DNA of 60,714 bases from Candidatus Staskawiczbacteria bacterium RIFCSPHIGHO2_02_FULL_43_16 (GTDB lineage: Bacteria; Patescibacteriota; Minisyncoccia; Minisyncoccales; Staskawiczbacteraceae). A model generated the notes under the pieces. The model was not told the DNA's origin and made no database searches. It was given only the letters and a program-made list of their open reading frames with translations. Location of the stretch: the NCBI GenBank assembly GCA_001821935.1, contig MHOU01000012.1:54070-114783 (forward strand). Reading direction: 5' to 3'. Below are positions 22,756 through 60,714 of this stretch, one piece after another. Each line of letters begins with the position of its first letter. Position 1 is the first letter of the stretch. Position numbers and translations under genes: made by a program.

Positions 22756-24315
22756 ATGTCAACAAACTTAACTCCCAAACAAAAACAGATATTAGAATAT
22801 ATAAAAAAACGTATTACAAAGAATGGCTATGCTCCCTCTCTTGGGGAAATAGGGACGAGATTCAAGCTAGTAAAATCAACAATACATCAGCACGTTGATT
22901 CCTTGATAGAAAAAAAATACTTAAACAAATCAGATTATCGGGCGAGATCATTAGAAATCCCCGAAGATAAAAATGTAACTTTTGTAGAAATCCCGCTCTT
23001 AGGCACGATAACAGCGGGCAAACCGATTGAAGCAATCGAAGTTTTAGGAGAAACCATTTCTATTCCAAGCAATGGGGTAGGGAGAATAAAAGACTATTAT
23101 GCATTGAGAGTATCTGGCGACAGCATGATTGACGAAGGAATTTTTGATGGAGATATAGTGGTCCTGAAGAAGCAATCCGTTGCTGAAAATGGGCAAACTG
23201 TGGTTGCTATAATTGATGACAATTCAGCAACTCTTAAAAAAATCTACAAAGAAGAAAGCCGATTCAGGCTACAACCAGCTAATCAAACGATGCTTCCTAT
23301 TTATAGAAGAGAGGTTGAAGTGCGCGGTGTGGTGATAAAAATCATAAGAGATCTTGAAGGTCAAACTAAAAAACAATTTTCAACTTTAGACTTATTTGCT
23401 GGAATAGGCGGATTAAGGCTGGGTTTCGAAAAAGCTGGCTTTAAAACTGTTTTTTCAAATGATTTTGACAAGCAATGCAAGATAACCTATGATTTGAATT
23501 TCAAAGATTCTAAGTTGATAGTAGAAGATATAAACAAAATAGAAATTAATGATCTCCCGGAATTTAGCTTCCTATTAGGAGGCTTCCCCTGCCAGGCTTT
23601 TTCAATAGCTGGATACAGAAAAGGATTTAGAGATGAAAAGGGAAGGGGGAATTTATTCTTCAGACTGGCAAAAATAATAGATGAACGGGAACCAGAGGGA
23701 TTTTTGCTTGAAAATGTTAAAAATTTGAAAACTCACGATAACGGAAAAACTTTTGGAATTATTAAAAAAACCCTCAAAAATCTTGGCTATCACGTAAAGG
23801 CAGAAGTGCTCAATAGTATGGAGTATGGCAATATCCCCCAAAATAGAGAGCGCATCTATATCGTCGGTTTCAAAAATAAAGATCACTACGAAAAATTTAG
23901 GTTCCCCGAACCTGTTGAGCTGACAACTAAAATCACTGATTTGCTTGAAAGTGAAGTTCCAGAAAAATACTATTACAATAAGAAGCCTCTATTCAATAAG
24001 CTTAAGGACTTCATTAAAGAAAGAGGAAAAGTATATCAGTGGCGCAGGAGGTATGTAAGAGAAAATAAGAAAAATGTCTGCCCTACTTTAACGGCAAACA
24101 TGGGAACAGGAGGCCATAATGTGCCGATTATCAAAGATAAAAATGGCATCAGGAAACTAACTCCTTTCGAGTGTGCGCGCATACAAGGATTTCCAGTTGA
24201 TTATAAATTACCCAAAATAGCAGATTCTGCTCTATACAAGCAATTCGGTAATTCGGTAAGCGTGCCAGTTATTGAAGCTATAGCAAAAAATATTAAAACA
24301 GCAATTACATCCTAA
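22756..24315 (+). CDS. Fusion protein: full LexA-like repressor (wHTH + S24 autopeptidase) joined to a DNA (cytosine-5) methyltransferase
   Basis: Residues 1-205 form the LexA part: LTPKQKQILEYIKK...GYAPSLGEIG, cleavage-site-like ITAGKP (A87-G88), GDSM (S123) and ATLKK (K161). Residues from about 208 to 519 form the MTase part: DLFAGIGG (motif I), GGFPCQAFS (IV), ENVKNL (VI), QNRERIYIVG (VIII), RKLTPFECARIQGFP (IX) and QFGNSVSVPV (X). Confidence 0.85.
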   Translation: MSTNLTPKQKQILEYIKKRITKNGYAPSLGEIGTRFKLVKSTIHQHVDSLIEKKYLNKSDYRARSLEIPEDKNVTFVEIPLLGTITAGKPIEAIEVLGETISIPSNGVGRIKDYYALRVSGDSMIDEGIFDGDIVVLKKQSVAENGQTVVAIIDDNSATLKKIYKEESRFRLQPANQTMLPIYRREVEVRGVVIKIIRDLEGQTKKQFSTLDLFAGIGGLRLGFEKAGFKTVFSNDFDKQCKITYDLNFKDSKLIVEDINKIEINDLPEFSFLLGGFPCQAFSIAGYRKGFRDEKGRGNLFFRLAKIIDEREPEGFLLENVKNLKTHDNGKTFGIIKKTLKNLGYHVKAEVLNSMEYGNIPQNRERIYIVGFKNKDHYEKFRFPEPVELTTKITDLLESEVPEKYYYNKKPLFNKLKDFIKERGKVYQWRRRYVRENKKNVCPTLTANMGTGGHNVPIIKDKNGIRKLTPFECARIQGFPVDYKLPKIADSALYKQFGNSVSVPVIEAIAKNIKTAITS

Positions 24316-25214: not shown

Positions 25215-27843
25215 TGGGCAGCAGCCGTGGCAATTCAAAGGTGATACTGCCATCCTTTTCATCAATCAATACCCTGCTACCTTCAGCAATCTCGTTGGTA
25301 ACAATTTTAATACTCAATGGGTCTAAAATCAACCGCTGGATAACCCGCTTTAACGGCCGAGCACCTAAGTTTGCATCGTACCCTTCTTTCAAAAGTAGTT
25401 CTTTCGCCTTTTCAGAAATTTTAATGCTGATTTCTTTGGCCGCCAGGCGTTTCTGAACTTTTGCCATTTCCAGGTCTACAATGTTTTTTATTTCCGGCGC
25501 CTTCAAATAATTAAAGATGACAATTTCATCAATTCTATTGATAAATTCTGGCCTAAACTGGTCGCGCAGTGAATTCATCACCTTATCTTTCATTGATTCG
25601 CGTTCGGCTACATCTTTTTGGCTGGAAAACCCGATGGCCGACATTTTATTGATAAAGTCAGACCCCACGTTGCTGGTCAGAACGATAATGGTGTTCTTAA
25701 AAGAAACTAGGCGGCCTTTGGAATCGGTCAGCCGGCCGTCTTCAAAAGTTTGCAGCAAAATGTTAAACACCTCCGGGTGGGCTTTTTCCACTTCATCAAG
25801 CAAAATCACCGAATATGGCCGGCGCCTGACTTTTTCCGTCAGCTGCCCCGCTTCTTCATAACCCACATAACCGGGCGGACTGCCGATAATTTTTGAAACG
25901 GTGTGACGTTCCATATATTCAGACATATCCAGGCGAATCATGGCCTTTTCATCGTCAAACAAAAATTCAGCCAAAGCCCGGGCGGTTTCGGTTTTACCCA
26001 CCCCCGTAGGCCCCAAAAACAAGAAGCTTCCCAGTGGCTTATTTTCCTCGGAAATGCCGGCTCTGGCCCGGCGAATGGCGCGAGAAATGGCGCTAATAGC
26101 CTCTTGTTGGCCAATAACCCGTCGGTTAAGCGTGGCTTCCATGGCTTCCAGTTTTTTAGCCTCTTCGGTAATTAAGCGCATCACCGGAATCCCGGTCCAG
26201 CGTGAAACCACCCGGGCCACATCTTCTTCCGTTACCTCTTCTTTCAAAAAGTGGTGGGTTTTTTGCAGTTTCACCAATTTTTGCTCAATGGCTTTTTGTT
26301 CTTTTAAAAGGGTTGGGATTTTTCCATATTTTATTTCCGCCACCTTTTCCAAATCAGCCTCGCGCTGGGCAATTTCGGTTTGGTTATACAAGGCGTCAAC
26401 TTTCTCCCGGATGCTTTTTATTTTATTAATCAGTTCTTTTTCGGCGTTCCACTTGGCGGAAAGCTCCTTCACCTTTTCTTTTATCTCTGAAAGTTCCTTG
26501 GCAATCACTTTCAGCCGCTTTTCCGAATCTTTTTCTTTTTTTAAGGCCTGTTTTTCAATTTCTAATTTGGTGATTTCCTCTTCATACTTTTCCAATTCCT
26601 GGGGTTCAGACTCAATTTCCAGGCGCAGGGCGCTACCCGCTTCATCCATCAAATCTACCGCCTTGTCCGGTAAAAAGCGGTCGGCAATGTAGCGGCTGGA
26701 AAGTTCCACCGCCGCCTTGATAGCCGAGTCCTTGATGCGCACGCCATGGTGCACTTCATACTTTTCTTTAATGCCGCGTAAAATGGCCGTAGCATCTTCA
26801 ATAGAGGGCTCTTGCACATAAATCGGCTGGAATCTGCGCTCTAATGCTGGGTCTTTTTCAATATATTTTTGGTATTCTTTTAAGGTGGTGGCGCCGATAG
26901 CCCGCAATTCCCCGCGCGCCAAAGCCGGCTTTAACAAATTAGAAGCATCAATCGCGCCCTCGGCCGCGCCTGCGCCAACCAGGGTATGCAGTTCATCAAT
27001 AAATAAAATATATTTGTCCGGAGCCCGGCTAATTTCTTTCAGTAGCGCTTTTATCCGGGTTTCAAACTCTCCCCGGTACTTGGTGCCGGCAATAATCTGG
27101 CCTAAATCCAGCGAAACCACTTCTTTGTTTTTTAAAAATTCCGGCACGTTGCCGCGGGCCACCCGCTGGGCGAAGCCTTCCACAATGGCGGTTTTTCCCA
27201 CCCCGGCTTCCCCAATCAACACCGGGTTATTTTTCGTCCGGCGGGAAATAATCTGCATCAACCGGCGGATTTCATTATCGCGCCCGATAATCGGGTCAAT
27301 TTTTCCGGCCGCCGCAAGATCCGTCAAATTCCGGGTGTATTTTTCTATCACCTGGTACTTTGATTCCGGTTCGGGATCGGTCACGCGCTGACCGCCGCGG
27401 ACCTGCGCCAAAATCTTCAGCACTGCATCATAATTTATCATGGATTTTTCCAGCACTTCCCGGGCCATACTCTTTACATCCAGCAGCCCCAAAAACAAAT
27501 GCTCAACGGAAATAAATTCGTCTTGCATTTTAATAGATTCCTGCCGAGCCTTATCCAGCACCTTAGCCATGTCCTGGGTTAGGTAAAACTGGCCAAACGA
27601 GGTTGGGTTGAGCATGGCGGAAATTTTTGAAATCTGGCTTTCGGTTTTCTTTTTTAAGACTTCATTGTCAACCCCCATTTTCTGCAAGATTGTCAAAACC
27701 AGCGACCCTTCTTGGGTCATCAATGCCATAAGCAAATGCAGGGCATCAATTTGCTGCTGCCCGCGTTCCTGCGCGATTTGCTGGGCTGCCATAATGGCAT
27801 CCTGCGCTTTGTTGGTAAAATTGGCCCCTCCTGGTTGCATCAT
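25183..27843 (-). CDS. clpB: ClpB AAA+ disaggregase chaperone
   Basis: 886 aa with two AAA modules: GEAGVGKTAIVEG / ILFIDELH and GPTGVGKTETARALA / VILLDEVEKAH. Also has a Clp_N domain and a middle coiled coil. Confidence 0.95.
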   Translation of the reverse strand: MMQPGGANFTNKAQDAIMAAQQIAQERGQQQIDALHLLMALMTQEGSLVLTILQKMGVDNEVLKKKTESQISKISAMLNPTSFGQFYLTQDMAKVLDKARQESIKMQDEFISVEHLFLGLLDVKSMAREVLEKSMINYDAVLKILAQVRGGQRVTDPEPESKYQVIEKYTRNLTDLAAAGKIDPIIGRDNEIRRLMQIISRRTKNNPVLIGEAGVGKTAIVEGFAQRVARGNVPEFLKNKEVVSLDLGQIIAGTKYRGEFETRIKALLKEISRAPDKYILFIDELHTLVGAGAAEGAIDASNLLKPALARGELRAIGATTLKEYQKYIEKDPALERRFQPIYVQEPSIEDATAILRGIKEKYEVHHGVRIKDSAIKAAVELSSRYIADRFLPDKAVDLMDEAGSALRLEIESEPQELEKYEEEITKLEIEKQALKKEKDSEKRLKVIAKELSEIKEKVKELSAKWNAEKELINKIKSIREKVDALYNQTEIAQREADLEKVAEIKYGKIPTLLKEQKAIEQKLVKLQKTHHFLKEEVTEEDVARVVSRWTGIPVMRLITEEAKKLEAMEATLNRRVIGQQEAISAISRAIRRARAGISEENKPLGSFLFLGPTGVGKTETARALAEFLFDDEKAMIRLDMSEYMERHTVSKIIGSPPGYVGYEEAGQLTEKVRRRPYSVILLDEVEKAHPEVFNILLQTFEDGRLTDSKGRLVSFKNTIIVLTSNVGSDFINKMSAIGFSSQKDVAERESMKDKVMNSLRDQFRPEFINRIDEIVIFNYLKAPEIKNIVDLEMAKVQKRLAAKEISIKISEKAKELLLKEGYDANLGARPLKRVIQRLILDPLSIKIVTNEIAEGSRVLIDEKDGSITFELPRLLPRAMERIKTKV

Positions 27844-27847
27844 TTTG

Positions 27848-27933
27848 CTAGGGTTTAGGGGTTAGGGTCTAGGGTTTAGCCGTAACGCCATGTTGCGTTT
27901 TTACTATACCCTATACCCTAGACGCTAGACCCT
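27848..27933. repeat. TAGGGT-type palindromic hairpin repeat, copy A (abuts clpB start)
   Basis: Arm ctagggtttaggggttagggtctagggtttag, core ccgtaacgccatgttgcgtttttact, inverted arm ataccctataccctagacgctagaccct. Near-identical to 46151-46235 and related to 42392-42476. Confidence 0.8.
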
Positions 27934-28101: not shown

Positions 28102-28129
28102 CCCCATCACCAGATGGGGTTCTTTTTTT
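28102..28129 (+). terminator. Plus-strand-oriented intrinsic-terminator-like hairpin overlapping the RT1 stop codon
   Basis: ccccatc-acca-gatgggg followed by ttcttttttt on the plus strand. No annotated plus-strand gene lies upstream. Confidence 0.4.
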
Positions 28130-29180
28130 AGAAAAAGTGCTCGCCCAACGCCTCAATGACTTTTTCTCCTAAGCTGCAAGAATCGCAGTGCTTTAACATT
28201 CCATAATATGATTGCAGAGTTTGGTGAAACGAAGATGCTGATATTTTTTCTTCTTTAAAATCGGCTATTTTGGCGTTTAATTTCCTAAACATCCGATGGC
28301 CGGTTTTCACGCGCAACATTTTATGGTGCGGAAAGCTTACATAACCCAAAAAATCAATCCCCTGGTGATATTTTCTGATTTCAATTTTATTGGGATGCAA
28401 AGATAGTTTTAAATTATCCCGTAAAAACGTATCAATCTTTGGAATTAATTCCTTCAGATATGCCACGTTCTCCGACAAAATAACTAAATCATCACAGTAT
28501 CTGATGTAGTACTTTATTTTTAGAGTACGTTTTATAAACTGGTCCAATTCGTTTAAGTAAATATTGGCAAAAATCTGGCTGGTAACATTGCCCAAGGGAA
28601 GCCCCTTGGCAAAACTACTGATAATCTCTTGCAGCAGCCAAAGGACATTTTTGTCACCTATCCGTTTTTTAATCAAATCCATCAAAATATCCTGGTCAAT
28701 GGAATCAAAAAACTTTTTGATATCGCATTTTAAGACAAAGCAATTGCGCGTGTTATTTTTACCAGCTTTATTGGCAAATGCACTAAGCCGGTTGACTGCC
28801 CGATGGGTTCCTTTTTCATCTCTGGATGAGTAAGAATCAAAAATAAAAGATTTGTCAAAAATAAGATATAGCTTTACAAATATCGCGTGGTGCAAAACCC
28901 GGTCTCTTACGGTTGCTTTGTTAATGGCGCGCAGTTTCGGGTCTTTGACGTAAAATGATTCATAGGGCGCGTGGTGATAGATTTTCTTTTTTAATTCTTC
29001 ATGAAGGGCGCGAATTGCTCTTGCATGCTCTTTTTCAAAGAGTATAACATCAAGCTTTTTGGCTTTCCCTTGTTTAAAATAATCCCACGCTGAAAGCAAA
29101 TTTTTAAGCGAAATTATTTCACTGAAAAGATCAAGGCTTTTAACCCCCCCCCCAATCAGTTTTTGGTTTTGAGTATCCAT
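28128..29180 (-). CDS. DGR reverse transcriptase (RT1)
   Basis: RT motifs CDIKKFFDSID, LPLGNVTSQIFANIYLNELD (the SQ signature of DGR RTs) and YIRYCDDLVIL (YxDD). A TR lies directly upstream with a matching VR. Confidence 0.9.
   Translation of the reverse strand: MDTQNQKLIGGGVKSLDLFSEIISLKNLLSAWDYFKQGKAKKLDVILFEKEHARAIRALHEELKKKIYHHAPYESFYVKDPKLRAINKATVRDRVLHHAIFVKLYLIFDKSFIFDSYSSRDEKGTHRAVNRLSAFANKAGKNNTRNCFVLKCDIKKFFDSIDQDILMDLIKKRIGDKNVLWLLQEIISSFAKGLPLGNVTSQIFANIYLNELDQFIKRTLKIKYYIRYCDDLVILSENVAYLKELIPKIDTFLRDNLKLSLHPNKIEIRKYHQGIDFLGYVSFPHHKMLRVKTGHRMFRKLNAKIADFKEEKISASSFHQTLQSYYGMLKHCDSCSLGEKVIEALGEHFF
29144..29153 (-). repeat. G10 homopolymer in codons 10-13 of RT1 (in frame, encodes GGG)
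   Basis: There are 10 consecutive C on the plus strand. The minus strand reads att ggg ggg ggg gtt. Confidence 0.9.
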
Positions 29181-29198
29181 GTTTTTAGTGCGCTATTG

Positions 29199-29228
29199 CC
29201 GCCAGGCGCAACCAAGCGCCTGGCGGCG
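29199..29228 (-). promoter_or_regulatory. GC-rich 12-bp hairpin in the TR1-RT1 spacer
   Basis: gccgccaggcgc-aaccaa-gcgcctggcggc lies between the TR 3' end (29246) and the RT start (29180). Confidence 0.6.
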
Positions 29229-29245
29229 CCCCCTTTACTTAGAGA

Positions 29246-29360
29246 CTTCGGAACGGGCGCGCCAGTTATCATTGCGATTGTCGGGATTGGCGTAGTTGAC
29301 GTTGAACTCGTTGCCGTTGAGATTGGTGTTAGGAACATTGCCGTCGGAGTACCGGGAGCC
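29246..29360 (-). repeat. DGR-1 template repeat (TR1)
   Basis: 115-nt gap-free alignment to 29652-29766. By my count all 24 mismatches are at T on the plus strand, which is A on the minus strand, in the TR. The minus-strand frame is rich in AAC/AAT codons (SRYSDGNVPNTNLNGNEFNVNYANPDNRNDNWRARSE). Confidence 0.9.
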
Positions 29361-29634: not shown

Positions 29635-30432
29635 TCACGACGAGGAAAGCTCTGCGGAACGGGCGCGCCAGCCACCACCGCGACCGACGGGACTGGCGCA
29701 GCCGACGCAGAACTCGCGGCCGTGGAGATAGGCGTCAGGAACACCGCCGCCGGAGTACCGGGAGGCGGGACATAGAGTGTAGTTTTTCACATCCAAGTGA
29801 TTGCCACTCTCATCCCAGCACTTCAACTCGTGAAGTATTCTCTCAATGATGCCCTCAGTCGAAAGCTTGTTGTCCCAGAAATGCCGGGCTGGGAGGTTTT
29901 TGTTCTCCTCGTCGGCTTCCACCCGGTCCCGAACCAAAAGGGCGTACGTACCGTTTTGCGGGTGGCGGTCGTGGTTGGGAATGGCCGCATCCAGATTATT
30001 GGCGTATCGCCAACACTTGAAGTTGGCTTCGCAAACGCTGTACAGCCAATTAAGCGGCTGGACCCTGGATTTGGCATTACCCGTTTTCCACGGCTCCGCC
30101 AATTCCCGCGGGACGATGATCAGGCGGTCAAACCCCTCCTTATGCTGAGGAATTTTGACGCCACCCAAGTCCAGCTTGAAACCGAAATACTTCTTGAAAA
30201 AGTCCTCCTGTTCCTGGAGTTGGCGGTCAAAGGGCGTAAATGCCATGGCCACCACCTGGACTTTAGCTGGCGGCGCTTGGACAATGGCCGACCGTTCAGT
30301 GGGCGCCAGCTCGCCACGAACAAATTGCTCCAGACTCTCAAGAGAGATTTTCTTTTCGCGCATCTTCTTGAGCAGATCCATTTGCAAACCAGCCAATTTG
30401 GCCGCGTCTGCGTCGATGAAGGTGTTCATCAT
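29635..30432 (-). CDS. DGR-1 target (variable) protein
   Basis: 265 aa from the ATG at 30432, which is preceded by AGGAGA. The VR occupies the last 40 or so codons. No signal peptide is recognisable. G+C is visibly higher than in neighbouring genes. Confidence 0.8.
   Translation of the reverse strand: MMNTFIDADAAKLAGLQMDLLKKMREKKISLESLEQFVRGELAPTERSAIVQAPPAKVQVVAMAFTPFDRQLQEQEDFFKKYFGFKLDLGGVKIPQHKEGFDRLIIVPRELAEPWKTGNAKSRVQPLNWLYSVCEANFKCWRYANNLDAAIPNHDRHPQNGTYALLVRDRVEADEENKNLPARHFWDNKLSTEGIIERILHELKCWDESGNHLDVKNYTLCPASRYSGGGVPDAYLHGREFCVGCASPVGRGGGWRARSAELSSS
29652..29766 (-). repeat. DGR-1 variable repeat (VR1) at the C-terminus of the target gene
   Basis: Counterpart of TR1. Encodes SRYSGGGVPDAYLHGREFCVGCASPVGRGGGWRARSA. 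The shared GC-rich 3' end tggcgcgcccgttccg is IMH-like. Confidence 0.9.
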
Positions 30433-30466
30433 TTTCTCCTGAATCAAAAACATAGACCGCCGAATT

Positions 30467-44330: not shown

Positions 44331-44876
44331 TTAAGTTTCTTCGTATTGGGCGAGGCGGTTGATCGGCTCTTCGAGGTCGTCGCCAGTGTCATCACTTAAG
44401 CGATACTCCATTAAGAAGGCATCTTCTCCGCTGTCTTCGTAGAAAGCACGCAGTACCCGGACGGCCCGAAACTCCTGCTTGCAAAAGAACAGCTGCGCCG
44501 CTAGGTTGGTCTCGCGAACCTCCAGGGTGATGCGGGTGCGGCGATGGCCGGACAGCTTGCTGATCATCTTCGCGACCATCTGCGCTCCCACGCCCATGCG
44601 CCGCCAAGCCGGATGGACCACGAAATTAAGGAAATGCAGTTTTCTTTTATGCAGTTCGTAGATCATGAAGCCGACAACCTTTTCGCCGTACTCCGCGACC
44701 ATACTAATGCAGTTGCGCTGGCGCATACAACACAGAAGATCCTCTTCACACCAAGGATGCTCAAAACTGAGCTGCTCGGCTTGCAAAACTTCCGGGTAAT
44801 CACGTCGAATCATCCAGCGAATGTGCACCCGAACCTGTTCCTTTAAGCCCCCCCCCTCATGACGCAGAGCTTCCAT
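44331..44876 (-). CDS. GNAT-family N-acetyltransferase (RimI-like), GC-rich and SD-led
   Basis: Acetyl-CoA motif VHPAWRRMGVGAQMV. GGGAGG lies 6 nt upstream of the ATG. A G9 run lies at codons 8-10. Confidence 0.8.
   Translation of the reverse strand: MEALRHEGGGLKEQVRVHIRWMIRRDYPEVLQAEQLSFEHPWCEEDLLCCMRQRNCISMVAEYGEKVVGFMIYELHKRKLHFLNFVVHPAWRRMGVGAQMVAKMISKLSGHRRTRITLEVRETNLAAQLFFCKQEFRAVRVLRAFYEDSGEDAFLMEYRLSDDTGDDLEEPINRLAQYEET
44848..44856 (-). repeat. G9 homopolymer near the 5' end of the GNAT gene
   Basis: There are 9 consecutive C on the plus strand. The minus strand reads gag ggg ggg ggc tta aag. Confidence 0.9.
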
Positions 44877-46143: not shown

Positions 46144-46150
46144 TTTTTAC

Positions 46151-46235
46151 GAGGGTTTAGGGGTTAGGGTCTAGGGTTTAGCCGTAACGCCGTGTTGCGT
46201 TTTTACTATACCCTATACCCTAGACGCTATACCCT
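46151..46235. repeat. TAGGGT-type palindromic hairpin repeat, copy C (between rpsU and yqeY)
   Basis: gagggtttaggggttagggtctagggtttag-ccgtaacgccgtgttgcgtttttact-ataccctataccctagacgctataccct. Near-identical to copy A. Confidence 0.8.
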
Positions 46236-56054: not shown

Positions 56055-56137
56055 GCCGAGGTGGCGAAACGGCAACCGCACAGCACTCAAAATGCTGCGA
56101 GCTCATGCTCTTGAGGGTTCAACTCCCTCCCTCGGCA
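56055..56137 (+). tRNA. tRNA-Leu (anticodon CAA), type II with long variable arm
   Basis: Acceptor stem gccgagg/cctcggc, anticodon stem-loop cagca-ctCAAaa-tgctg, variable-arm hairpin gagc-tcat-gctc, and T arm gaggg-ttcaact-ccctc. No CCA is encoded. Confidence 0.9.
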
Positions 56138-56142
56138 CTTTT

Positions 56143-56832
56143 ATGCCAAAAGCAAAATTATCAAGCATAAATTTTGATTGGACATCAGATTTGGCCTACG
56201 TAATCGGACTCCTAGCAACCGATGGCTGTCTTTCTAATGATGGCAGGCACATCACCATGCGCTCGTCAGACATCCAACAATTGGAAACCTTTAGAAAATG
56301 CCTAAACATTTCCAATAAAATAGGACAGACCTTCAATGACGGCTGGGCAAAGAAACCGGCATATAGAATACAGTTCGGCAACGTGCAATTTTATAAATGG
56401 CTTTTAGAAATTGGCCTATTTCCAGCAAAAACTTATACCATAGGAGAAATAAAAGTTCCCGATAAATACTTTTTTGATTTTTTACGGGGACATTTGGACG
56501 GAGACGGCTCAATTGTAACCTATACTGATAATTGGAATACTTTCAAGAATCCAAAATATATTTATAAAAGAATTTATATACGTTTTATATCTGCCAGCGA
56601 AAAACATATAGCTTGGTTGGCAGAAAATATTTTCAGATTAAGTAAAATAAAAGGGCATTTACATCAGAACAAGCCAACAAGGGATTTTCAAACTACGAGC
56701 ATATGGGAGATAAAATTTACAAAGAATGATTCTTTAAAATTATATCCCTACCTATATCCATCAAATGACATTGCCTGCTTATTAAGAAAAAGACGAAAAA
56801 TAGAAGATTTCATTAAAACATTAGCCCAATAA
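56143..56832 (+). CDS. Free-standing double-motif LAGLIDADG homing-endonuclease-like protein
   Basis: LAYVIGLLATDGCL and FLRGHLDGDGSI. The ATG at 56143 lies 5 nt after the tRNA. The longer ORF start at 56092 falls inside the tRNA. Confidence 0.8.
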   Translation: MPKAKLSSINFDWTSDLAYVIGLLATDGCLSNDGRHITMRSSDIQQLETFRKCLNISNKIGQTFNDGWAKKPAYRIQFGNVQFYKWLLEIGLFPAKTYTIGEIKVPDKYFFDFLRGHLDGDGSIVTYTDNWNTFKNPKYIYKRIYIRFISASEKHIAWLAENIFRLSKIKGHLHQNKPTRDFQTTSIWEIKFTKNDSLKLYPYLYPSNDIACLLRKRRKIEDFIKTLAQ

Positions 56833-58638: not shown

Positions 58639-59674
58639 CTATTTCCATGGCTTATCAATCCCAAAGCCGGCAATAAGCTCAAGAAGTTCCTGCTTCACTA
58701 AAAATGCATTACAATGCTTGAGTATGCCAAAGTATGATAGTAACGTTGCATCAAGAGACTCTTTTTTAATTAATCCACTGCGAAAATCAATTAACCAGGA
58801 TTTTACCCTTTTAAACATCCTCTTTTTCGTTTTTACCCTTAAAACAGTAAAATAAGGAAAACTGACATAGCCTAAAAAATCTATCCCTTGGTGATACTTA
58901 GAAATCGTCACCTTATTGGGATGAAGTGACATTTTCAAACGGGTTCTCAAAAAAATATTTATCCTTTGGATCAAATCTTCCAAATACTTTTTGTCTTCGG
59001 ACAAAATAACAAAATCATCGCAATAACGGATATAATACTTTACGCGCAACGTATGCTTTATAAAACCATCAAGTTCCGCGAGGTAAATATTGGCAAATAA
59101 TTGGCTCGTAATATTTCCCAAGGGCAAACCTGCCGAAAAACTTTTAGTGATCACTTCTATGAGCCATAAAGATTGCTCATCTTTTACTCGTTTCTTGATA
59201 AGGTTTAATAAAATAGCCTGGTCAACATTGTCGAAAAACTTTTTAATATCACATTTTAAAACAAAACAATTCTTGGTATTGTTGTTACTTTCTTTCTGGA
59301 AAAATTCATGCAAACGGCGCACAGCCCGGTGCGTACCCTTGCCAATCCTACAAGAATATGAGTCATAAATAAACGTCTTATCAAAAATAGGGTACAATTT
59401 CCTAAATAACGCATGATGAACCACCCGGTCACGCACACAAGCTTTGTTTATTTTCCGCAGCTTGGGATCCTTAACATAAAACGTCTCGTAACCGCCATGA
59501 GAGTATGTTTTACTTTGAAGTTCTTTTTGGATAAAGTTTAAATTATTCTTTAAATTCTTTTTGAATGCAATAACATCCGGTTTTTTAGTTTTGTCCAGCT
59601 CAAATTCCGCCCAGGCATTTTTAATATTTTCCCAACTAGTAAGCCCCCCCCCCCATTTGTTTCAAAATTTTCAT
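58639..59674 (-). pseudogene. DGR reverse transcriptase RT2, frame broken by a G11 homopolymer (intact if the run were G10)
   Basis: RT body 58639-59436: CDIKKFFDNVD, LPLGNITSQLFANIYLAELD and YIRYCDDFVIL. The upstream 59437-59643 continues the same frame (LTSWENIKNAW...FYVKDPKLRKINKAC). The ATG at 59674 is in the +1 frame relative to it, across the 11-G run. Confidence 0.8.
59644..59654 (-). repeat. G11 homopolymer at codons 7-11 of RT2
   Basis: There are 11 consecutive C on the plus strand. Confidence 0.9.
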
Positions 59675-59691
59675 GGATTTTTTAATTAACA

Positions 59692-59717
59692 CAAAAGGAG
59701 TTTTTCAACTCCTTTTG
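59692..59717 (-). promoter_or_regulatory. 11-bp hairpin with GAAA loop in the TR2-RT2 spacer
   Basis: caaaaggagtt-tttc-aactccttttg. The loop reads GAAA on the minus strand. Confidence 0.55.
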
Positions 59718-59725
59718 ATGTGGAG

Positions 59726-59840
59726 ACTTCGGGACGGACACGGGCATTCGGATTGGCATAGTTGGGATTGTCGTTGTTGACATGGACCCTGCCCGGATTG
59801 GCGTCGAAGTAAGCGACGTTGCCATTGCGAAAGCGCGAGC
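59726..59840 (-). repeat. DGR-2 template repeat (TR2)
   Basis: 115-nt gap-free alignment to 60391-60505 with 15 mismatches by my count. Fourteen are at minus-strand adenines of the TR. The frame encodes SRFRNGNVAYFDANPGRVHVNNDNPNYANPNARVRPE. Confidence 0.9.
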
Positions 59841-59904
59841 CCATCATATTGCATAGTTACATCCATGTCACCGACCGCACAATAAGCGTACGCTGTCTGG
59901 GTTG

Positions 59905-60173
59905 GGAGTGCGAAACGGAATTGGCATTGTTTTAGAAACCAAAAAATGAGATGATTTTCAGGCGCGGCGAGGAGGCATAGCCTTGTGCTACGCCGACAAA
60001 GCCGCAACGCAGAAATCAGCCATTTTTTGGTTTCCCTCGGGGCGAGCGAATTAAGGCAAGCTTCTTCGTTGCTCATCGAAAACGATGCGCAGAGGCATCG
60101 ATTTCTTCTTCGCGCCTTGAATCTTGCCCTAATTCGCTACCGCTAAAACAATGCCAATTCCGTTTCGCACTCC
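59905..60173 (+). mobile_element. Nested-palindrome (MITE-like) element, copy E2, inserted in the DGR-2 VR-TR spacer
   Basis: A perfect 31-nt inverted repeat (59905-59935 / 60143-60173) encloses hairpins aaaccaaaaaatg...cattttttggttt and agcgaattaaggcaag...cttgccctaattcgct. The paralogous DGR-1 spacer is continuous across this point. Confidence 0.6.
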
Positions 60174-60308
60174 TCACTCTGTCCGTAGCAGAGAAGTTTT
60201 TTGAGTCTTTGATACTCATTATAATTATGCAAGCAGTTTCCTGTGGCAAACCATTTCTTGCTTATTGGGAAAACTATTTACCACGTCAGTATGTTACATA
60301 AAAAAAGA

Positions 60309-60337
60309 GCGCTTTGCAACAGATTGTTGCAAAGCGC
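60309..60337 (-). terminator. Intrinsic terminator of the DGR-2 target gene
   Basis: The minus strand reads gcgctttgcaaca-atc-tgttgcaaagcgc followed by tcttttttt, 17 nt after the stop at 60354. Confidence 0.75.
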
Positions 60338-60353
60338 ATGAACGTTAGCCAAC

Positions 60354-60714
60354 TTACGCCTTCGCTCCGCTCGGCTCCAGTTGGCGGGAAACTGCGGGAC
60401 GGACACGGGCAAACGGATAGGCATAGTCGGGACCGTCGCCGTTGACAAGGACCCCGCCCGGATTGGCGTCGAAGACAGCGACGTAGCCATAGCGAAAGCG
60501 CGAGCGGGTCCGGGTCAACTTCTCGAGGTTCAAGAGCTGTTTCTTGCCGGTGGCAAGATAGACTCCCAAATCAAGAAGCAAGCCGTCGCGCAGGATGGGG
60601 TCGTTGTAGCCTTCCACCCCATCCTGGAATTTCTTCCATCGCTGGTTGGCAGACTCGTTGCTCGGCTCACCGGTCAACGACCGGGTAAAGCCGAGCAGAT
60701 ACGGGCCTTCTTCT
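60354..60714 (-). CDS. DGR-2 target (variable) protein, 5'-truncated by the window edge
   Basis: The open frame runs to the window end. VR2 lies near the C-terminus. GC-rich like the DGR-1 target. Confidence 0.75.
   Translation of the reverse strand, partial: EEGPYLLGFTRSLTGEPSNESANQRWKKFQDGVEGYNDPILRDGLLLDLGVYLATGKKQLLNLEKLTRTRSRFRYGYVAVFDANPGGVLVNGDGPDYAYPFARVRPAVSRQLEPSGAKA
60391..60505 (-). repeat. DGR-2 variable repeat (VR2)
   Basis: Counterpart of TR2. Encodes SRFRYGYVAVFDANPGGVLVNGDGPDYAYPFARVRPA. Confidence 0.9.

Follow-up and report, generated by a model that had tools for sequence, protein, structure and literature searches.

A length-variable poly-G tract in the leader of Patescibacteria diversity-generating retroelement reverse transcriptases, a candidate ON/OFF gate

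Why should a reverse transcriptase (RT) gene that is otherwise intact be thrown out of frame by a single surplus G in a pure run of Gs? The question is raised by the second of two diversity-generating retroelements (DGRs) in a 60,714-nucleotide stretch of the genome of Candidatus Staskawiczbacteria bacterium RIFCSPHIGHO2_02_FULL_43_16 (contig MHOU01000012.1, positions 54,070 to 114,783; hereafter the window), whose RT gene, RT2, has 11 consecutive Gs close to its 5' end. An earlier reading of this DNA, made without database searches (the sequence-only reading), had proposed that the run is an ON/OFF switch on a hypermutation system. We show here that the run has to be translated, that its length sets the reading frame, that its purity and position are conserved and that, at three homologous loci, its length differs between otherwise identical populations. 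On balance we favor the interpretation that the run is a conserved hypermutable contingency tract, situated in the dispensable N-terminal leader of the RTs of a clade of Patescibacteria DGRs, which gates RT translation.

On the minus strand RT2 opens (59674-59636) ATG AAA ATT TTG AAA CAA ATG GGG GGG GGG GCT TAC TAG, with the second ATG (59656-59654) contributing its G to the run. The resulting short leader open reading frame (ORF) is the true RT2 start fused to the wrong frame (coordinates of all features are in Table 1). The body of the RT lies in another frame, which runs from a first codon CTT at 59643 to a stop codon at 58641-58639 and is covered by Pfam RVT_1 (E 4.6e-23, with 7.7e-24 for the other RT of the window, RT1). 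In this frame there is a TGA immediately upstream of the G11, and the first ATG, GTG or TTG after it is the GTG at 59436, which is positioned beyond the conserved N-terminal region, so that a start there would remove that region. As there is no in-frame start before this GTG, full-length RT2 cannot be made from the gene as sequenced by standard rules. With G10 in place of G11 the two frames join into an RT of 344 aa, reading MKILKQMGGGLTSWENIKNAW..., and the number of repeats thus decides between a 12-codon ORF and the entire enzyme. Our re-reading of the sequence in both frames agrees with the original observation that G11 disrupts the RT2 frame and G10 restores it, and the accompanying claim that the rest of the gene is free of lesions is upheld by the 334 open codons and the complete RVT_1 domain. 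Both RT genes of the window carry within their reading frame an uninterrupted homopolymer of more than about 7 (G11 in RT2 and G10 in RT1), one of the features by which contingency genes are recognized.

Both systems are DGRs in that they combine an RVT_1 RT with a template repeat (TR) and variable repeat (VR) pair, the VR being located in a target gene. Fifteen mismatches separate the cores of TR2 and VR2, of which 14 are A-to-N and one is T-to-G, as would be expected from the adenine-specific divergence that had been noted from the sequence. Avd is common in DGRs, though not universal. A tblastn search found no Avd match in the window and there is no space for avd between TR and RT; in the two DGRs of the window the G-run would gate the RT alone.

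RT1 and RT2 have their runs at the same relative position, and that of RT1, which is in frame, was G10 in each of the six sibling contigs inspected. The window has four G or C runs of at least 7 in total, and the three longest (G11, G10 and G9) all begin within the first 10 codons of minus-strand genes. When the window was shuffled by mononucleotides 200 times, a run of at least 10 arose in six shuffles and a run of 11 in one, which makes chance an improbable source of the runs. GGG represents 19% of the Gly codons of the window, giving three consecutive GGG codons a chance of 0.7%; codon usage is therefore unable to yield the run.

The G9 run is in a GC-rich gene for a GNAT (RimI-like) acetyltransferase, the protein of which is 80-84% identical to Planctomycetes-type RimI and whose gene was probably acquired horizontally. 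The N-terminus of this protein has been replaced (MEALRHE-GGG-LKEQ vs. MSTGRTEKEQ in homologues), and the G9 tract was absent in all 119 GNAT homologues listed. The tract at the 5' end of this gene was installed independently, which we count in favor of a contingency role for such runs. The sequence that follows the GNAT run (CTTAAAGG) matches several RT leaders.

The repaired RT2, used as a query, has thousands of RT homologues in the Candidate Phyla Radiation (CPR), with identities of 45-86%, and those that were examined adjoin TR/VR pairs or an avd gene. GGG occurs at residues 1-30 (mostly 5-13) in 42 of the 120 best protein matches, and many of the other matches are N-terminally truncated, their gene calls beginning no earlier than the conserved ISLENLFLAW motif. 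We fetched 160 loci from species-representative genomes and metagenomes; the metagenome scan contained no RT2 sibling (best identity 61%) and was used for the family survey only. Of the 160 loci, 91 carry a run of G7-G12, located 22-77 nt ahead of the conserved motif (G7 in 6, G8 in 5, G9 in 40, G10 in 28, G11 in 10 and G12 in 2). After duplicates were dropped, and the RT2-clade relatives and the two RTs of the window added, the non-redundant set comprised 152 Patescibacteria loci, 93 with a G7-G12 run and 59 without. Across 842 kb of these loci 88 of the 90 G/C runs of at least 8 fall at the RT site, with a further one of the 90 likewise located in an RT leader. A genome-wide habit of forming G-runs was rejected for the family on these counts; the window has one extra run, that in the GNAT gene.

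Presence of the run is structured by clade, nearest neighbors agreeing in 132 of 155 cases, and lineages that have no pure run retain an interrupted Gly-rich stretch in frame (e.g., GAG GGA GGT GGC in L026). The frame state is labile, with nearest neighbors agreeing in 21 of 43 cases vs. 0.40 expected by chance. Close pairs differ in length, such as the RT2 orthologue L165 (G10) and RT2 (G11), L011 (G9) and L132 (G11), and, on identical flanks, L064 (G9) and L074 (G10).

The consequences for translation are evident from the start codons. Among the 93 run-bearing loci, 22 (24%) have an in-frame ATG upstream and 46 (49%) have any of ATG, GTG or TTG, compared to 49 (83%) and 57 (97%), respectively, of the 59 run-less loci. 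The remaining 47 run-bearing loci lack any ATG, GTG or TTG in the RT frame up to and including the run, and in 45 of these the ORF is otherwise intact (median 326 codons, no other stop). No canonical start is found between the run and the conserved motif in 32 of these 47 strictly out-of-frame loci. Where there is no canonical start between the run and the conserved N-terminus the run has to be translated, and with the start upstream of or at the run and the RT body downstream, production of a full-length RT depends on run length modulo 3. The possibility that the poly-G serves as a Shine-Dalgarno sequence for a downstream start was considered and rejected, since RT2 has no such start before the GTG at 59436.

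Two further features of the leader were observed. Codon 4 in run-bearing loci is NGG (AGG, CGG, TGG or GGG, encoding R, R, W and G), often embedded in AAGGAG- or AAGGAA-like strings, and looks to be conserved as nucleotides rather than as amino acids; it could represent an internal Shine-Dalgarno sequence for a TTG, ATG or GTG abutting the run, or reflect a constraint from avd on the opposite strand. In addition, several metagenome contigs break at or next to the RT poly-G: L141 begins within the run, L110 and L087 begin immediately past it, and an N gap abuts the G12 of L066. These breaks fit reads at the tract that are either heterogeneous or of poor quality.

Several clusters of RTs at 90% protein identity mix full-length and truncated members on long contigs, and direct comparison of contigs revealed three homologous loci at which the tract varies in length. 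The first is a Nealsonbacteria locus (L170-L186, 17 contigs with identical flanks) with G9 in 10 contigs and G10 in seven. For one pair, L176 and L177, a single G is the sole difference over 931 nt upstream and 1500 nt downstream. Nearly all other differences between the contigs of this locus are within the ~90-nt VR, situated ~861-946 nt upstream of the run, where TR has adenines at 27 of the 30 variable columns, and this is clear between-sample DGR diversification. The VR variant changes in nearly every sample, in G9 and G10 populations alike. The second locus, from Wildermuthbacteria (L187-L196), belongs to the same Rifle project as the window and has G9 in seven contigs and the reference, G10 in two and G11 in one; within a single pipeline (the ANAN16 scaffolds) three samples have G9 and a fourth G10. 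The third locus (L197-L204) has G9 in five contigs and G10 in three. The expectation that tract length varies among siblings was confirmed at these three homologous loci; at RT2 itself all five other sibling contigs are G11.

The G11 of RT2 is repeated in five further contigs from the same strain or one nearly identical to it (L081, L082, L083, L167 and L084), which stem from five sample or assembly records of ENA and JGI; L084 has 2 mismatches in 1631 nt. A single scaffold (ANAN16-1 scaffold_1057) holds both RT1 with G10 and RT2 with G11, and because RT1 is in frame and RT2 out of frame in the same assemblies, a systematic miscount is unlikely to explain the difference. The concern of the sequence-only reading that the run might be an assembly error at a homopolymer was not substantiated by these recurrences. 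Its other concern, that orthologues might have further inactivating mutations, was likewise not borne out. The syntenic orthologue of RT2 (L165/L166; gene order NTP-transferase, Sua5, target, RT, SHMT, onward to TopoI) is 86% identical, its RT starting ATG AAA AGT TTG AAA CAG ATG with, in total, an in-frame G10, and two relatives, L168 (76-79% identical) and L169 (73-74%), each carry a single surplus G as their sole defect. Comparison of RT2 with L165 gave dN 0.08, dS 0.61 and omega 0.13, values indicating that RT2 is under purifying selection. The low omega and the in-frame G10 orthologue both support the proposal that RT2 is switched off rather than decayed. In-frame siblings of RT2 were sought via the 90% protein cluster list; exact-protein look-ups return the same gene call only. 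The one hint of a second length at RT2 itself comes from two protein-level read assemblies (P0125, 344 aa, and P0124), which may stem from erroneous reads; they have the RT2 tract in frame (MKILKQMGGGLTSW...), and P0125 shares two substitutions with the strain of L084, whose contig is G11.

The relatives of RT2 that have Avd add a second gene to the tract. In 72 run-bearing loci avd (Pfam bAvd) is located between TR and RT but encoded on the other strand, and the 5' ends of avd and RT overlap; among the run-less loci avd is on the minus strand in 55 of 59. The same run is read as GGG GGG GGG in RT and as CCC CCC CCC (PPP) in avd, as exemplified by L187, with MNQRSFKPF-GGG-RRKKIFH on the RT strand and MKNFLST-PPP-EGFEAPLIHVF on the avd strand. 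In the L187 family both ATGs are in frame at G9, and both are out of frame at G10 or G11. ATG frames are unambiguous in 43 of the 72 loci with overlapping avd, and in 39 of these 43 one length class serves both ATGs; as assembled, both genes are off in 30, both on in 10 and the state is mixed in three. We down-weighted this co-phasing as covariation, because the relation is inherited and indels in the overlap shift both genes alike; it consequently represents a conserved common ON phase and not 43 independent events. We consider the chances about even that the clade as a whole carries a conserved homopolymer switch, its ancestral form being located in the overlapping divergent 5' ends of RT and avd, such that one slippage would toggle both genes, with most cells OFF and hypermutation being the activity of a stochastic minority.

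If the run is a contingency tract, strand slippage during replication would add or remove a G, and the RT would be toggled on and off, stochastically and reversibly, by run length. Targeted hypermutation of the VR-bearing gene would thereby become a minority, bet-hedged activity, and where relatives have a divergent avd that overlaps the RT gene, the accessory protein Avd would be gated by this switch as well.

Several observations weigh against this interpretation. Most assembled alleles are out of frame, including the 30 of 43 avd loci in which both genes are off. The Nealsonbacteria VR diversifies although the consensus tract fits neither ATG frame. Leaky expression, by slippage of RNA polymerase or the ribosome, would accommodate both observations no less readily than a clean OFF state. 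Of the three polymorphic loci, two have lengths that track data source (G9 in JGI, G10 in ENA) and might to some extent have a technical cause; the other locus varies within one pipeline. RT2 has G11 in every assembled contig and VR2 is identical among the sibling contigs, which leaves switching and present DGR2 activity hypothetical at the RT2 locus itself, and the in-frame P0125 and P0124 could derive from erroneous reads. Moreover, the frame states are skewed. By the ATG criterion 36 loci have one G too many, 17 are in frame and 14 have one too few, and the corresponding numbers in the RT2-like group that has no avd are 8, 5 and 0. A purely random switch fails to predict this excess unless there is a mutational bias. 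An insertion-biased mutation equilibrium around G9-G10, as is reported for Campylobacter jejuni, would fit the asymmetry; a directional slip at the RNA level would fit it too.

The latter possibility is part of the most serious rival explanation, which we nevertheless consider rather unlikely: that slippage of RNA polymerase, or a +1/-1 slip of tRNA-Gly by the ribosome on GGG-G, yields some in-frame product at any run length. In that case the tract would act as a constitutive attenuator, holding RT (and Avd) at very low levels, and drift in its DNA length would be largely neutral. Such recoding would account for frame states that are nearly unconstrained and for consensus alleles of which the majority are out of frame, as well as for the ongoing VR diversification of Nealsonbacteria with a consensus of G9 or G10, and the excess of loci with one G too many would suit a directional slip. 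However, in-frame, +1 and -1 states all occur and the nearest relatives disagree, so that a fixed programmed ribosomal frameshift is not conserved. There is no stimulatory structure 3' of the run (z -1.3), and the 0-frame codon after it is an ordinary GCT, GGT or ACT rather than a pause site. Transcriptional slippage can reportedly be stimulated by an upstream hairpin, but the hairpin here ends 37 nt ahead of the run, too distant for the known cases, and to our knowledge efficient transcriptional slippage in bacteria is documented for A/T runs and not for G runs. Lastly, siblings truly differ in tract length at the DNA level.

It is improbable, in our estimation, that the run is maintained for a reason other than frame, either as an element with a structural or priming role in the DGR RNA 3' of TR or as a spacer between the divergent avd and RT. 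The run is 70-110 nt downstream of TR, a position that in the Bordetella phage system is said to fall in functional spacer RNA; it is specific to the RT clade and nearly absent elsewhere in these genomes; and codon 4 is conserved as nucleotides and not as residues. Against this, the run has to be translated in RT2 and in the 32 of 47 strictly out-of-frame loci that have no canonical start ahead of the conserved N-terminus, and it encodes GGG in RT but PPP in avd, the two ATGs sharing one phase. Where the pure run has been lost the interrupted Gly-rich stretch stays in frame (L026), a similar run is present in the unrelated GNAT gene, which has no TR nearby, and the region has no match to an Rfam family and no significant fold.

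Just as doubtful is the idea that RT2 is a young pseudogene, in which the additional G has been fixed and DGR2 is on its way out, leaving RT1 as the working copy. The fixation of G11 in all sibling contigs and the invariance of VR2 between samples are what would be expected of such a gene, and DGR2 has undergone a second change relative to its in-frame orthologue, namely an insertion upstream of TR2 that resembles a miniature inverted-repeat transposable element (MITE). Against this, the 334 codons have no other lesion and omega is low, the lesion is exactly in the tract that is length-polymorphic in the family, L168 and L169 show the same single-G excess alone, in-frame read assemblies exist, and the MITE-like insertion is upstream of the promoter-like site by TR2. 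That G11 is an Illumina miscount of a tract that in truth leaves RT2 intact is scarcely credible: homopolymers of at least 10 are prone to error, several contigs are interrupted at the run or adjoin an N gap, and at two loci length follows data source, but the same scaffold and assemblies return different lengths for the two RTs, five further ENA and JGI contigs reproduce G11, the Wildermuthbacteria lengths differ within one pipeline, and the fraction of run-bearing loci that are out of frame (about half to three quarters) is beyond plausible consensus error.

The remainder of the DGR2 cassette provides some context for the tract. The MITE-like element is missing from the syntenic in-frame orthologue L165 and has no second copy within the window. 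Hairpins directly follow both TR1 and TR2, and relatives (e.g., L169) have different hairpins at the same place, which suggests a conserved structure with compensatory sequence change; the hairpin is possibly a partial terminator between TR and RT. Folding of the region from TR2 to RT2 identified this post-TR hairpin only. Rfam searches of the whole window at the gathering threshold, and of 59400-60714 in E-value mode, returned tRNA only. VR1, like VR2, was without between-sample variation in the sibling contigs compared.

Several features of the window are separate from the DGRs. The two copies of a 91-nt direct repeat each lie shortly downstream of a gene on the minus strand, which is ClpB for one of them, and may be an element similar to repetitive extragenic palindromes (REP-like) or a terminator. 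A LexA-like repressor fused to a DNA methylase sits in the lowest-GC stretch of the window (32%). An ORF with a LAGLIDADG-like domain begins inside tRNA-Leu(CAA), and has been called at other lengths (213 and 229 aa) in sibling contigs.

Table 1. Positions of features in the window and, in the last three rows, in loci of relatives.
Feature	Position	Strand	Details
LexA-like repressor (LexA_DNA_bind + Peptidase_S24) fused to C-5 cytosine DNA methylase	22756-24315	plus	single ORF
91-nt direct repeats	27843-27933 and 46145-46235		96% identical; internal TAGGGT/ACCCTA symmetry
RT1, intact DGR reverse transcriptase	28128-29180	minus	350 aa; 58% identical to repaired RT2
G10 homopolymer in RT1	29144-29153	minus	codons 10-13, ATT GGG GGG GGG GTT (I9-GGG-V13), in frame
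GC-rich hairpin	29195-29232	minus	directly 3' of TR1; GGCGCCGCCAGGCGC...GCGCCTGGCGGC
TR1	29246-29358	minus	
VR1	29652-29764		inside target ORF 29635-30453
GNAT (RimI-like) acetyltransferase gene	44331-44876	minus	
G9 homopolymer in GNAT gene	44848-44856	minus	codons 7-10, in frame
tRNA-Leu(CAA)	56055-56138	plus	
ORF with LAGLIDADG-like domain	56092-56832	plus	246 aa; overlaps 3' half of tRNA-Leu(CAA)
RT2 body, RT frame (LTSWENIKNAW...)	58639-59643	minus	334 codons, no internal stop
Short leader ORF of RT2 as sequenced	59636-59674	minus	12 codons + stop; TAG at 59638-59636
G11 homopolymer in RT2	59644-59654	minus	codons 7-10; G10 is the in-frame length
Hairpin	59692-59717	minus	directly 3' of TR2; 11-bp stem, GAAA loop, AU-rich, weak T tail
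TR2, template repeat of DGR2	59722-59840	minus	
Promoter-like site GTGACA-17-TATGAT	59843-59871	minus	abuts TR2 upstream; kept in L165; consensus match alone
MITE-like insertion	59905-60173		269 bp; between target-gene terminator and TR2; perfect 31-nt terminal inverted repeats (GGAGTGCGAAACGGAATTGGCATTGTTTTAG)
Terminator of DGR2 target gene	60309-60337		
Stop of DGR2 target gene	~60354		
VR2	60387-60505	minus	3' end of DGR2 target gene, which extends past window end
avd of L177	858-1187	minus	antisense to RT and target gene
avd of L187	751-1122	minus	antisense to RT and target gene
avd of L200	870-1055	minus	antisense to RT and target gene

A gate of this kind would bear on more than one aspect of DGR biology. 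The regulation of DGRs is largely unexplained, and mutagenic retrohoming that goes unchecked should exact a cost. Were the RT under a heritable stochastic gate, this would account for how CPR bacteria with tiny genomes can afford many DGRs, why so many of their DGR RTs look broken and are discarded from surveys or called truncated, and why DGR activity is patchy across populations. It predicts that the tract length of a read should predict the diversity of the linked VR. DGR catalogues and gene callers would under-count functional RTs and Avds in this clade, in which the tract is better treated as a recoding or phase-variable site. In one large survey of DGRs more than half of the candidates were discarded for premature stops or truncations (PMC5758913), a filter by which out-of-frame alleles of the type described here would have been removed. 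If the interpretation is correct random mutation gates directed mutation, and if the tract shared by RT and avd holds it is a compact case of one repeat gating two overlapping divergent genes.

In the papers covered by our literature searches no regulatory homopolymer is reported for any DGR, in keeping with the suggestion of the sequence-only reading that an ON/OFF switch on a DGR had not been described. Homopolymer phase variation and DGRs are each known, and we found no prior description of their combination. The DGRs of the CPR form a clade of their own, DGR clade 2 (Roux et al., 2021, PMC8144416). As in DGRs of the Bordetella phage BPP-1 type, those studied here have an RVT_1 RT, adenine-specific TR/VR differences, the VR at the 3' end of the target and, in relatives, avd. 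They differ in that the two in the window have no detectable avd, while in relatives avd is encoded antisense, in overlap with the 5' end of the RT gene.

The closest parallels to the tract itself are the poly-G/C contingency loci of C. jejuni (and also of Neisseria, Haemophilus and Helicobacter), which have a pure run of ~8-12 Gs, with a mode of 9-10, in the 5' part of an ORF. In loci of the C. jejuni type, as here, length modulo 3 sets ON or OFF, near-identical isolates differ and many loci per genome are OFF; C. jejuni NCTC11168 has 29 poly-G/C tracts of at least 7 (PMC4965091). Those contingency loci are mostly genes for surface structures or restriction-modification in host-associated pathogens and are scattered over the genome, whereas the tract described here is restricted to a single gene family (88 of 90 runs), is conserved clade-wide in environmental CPR bacteria and would gate a mutagenic engine rather than an antigen. 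There are also resemblances to the +1 frameshift of prfB (release factor 2, RF2) and to the slippage of dnaX and insertion sequences (IS), which similarly have a G-rich Shine-Dalgarno-like or slippery run and an early zero-frame stop, with one additional base as the commonest state. In contrast to those systems, the frame relation here varies (in frame, +1 and -1), and there is neither a pause codon nor a stimulatory structure. Phasevarions, which depend on phase-variable DNA methyltransferases, and switchable mutators are similar to the proposed DGR gate at another level, in that a stochastic repeat switch is placed atop a system that alters phenotypes or the supply of mutations, and two layers of bet-hedging are common to all of them. 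The difference is one of reach: phasevarions and mutators act genome-wide, through the methylome or mismatch repair, whereas the gate proposed here would control hypermutation that is site-specific and limited to one target gene or a few.

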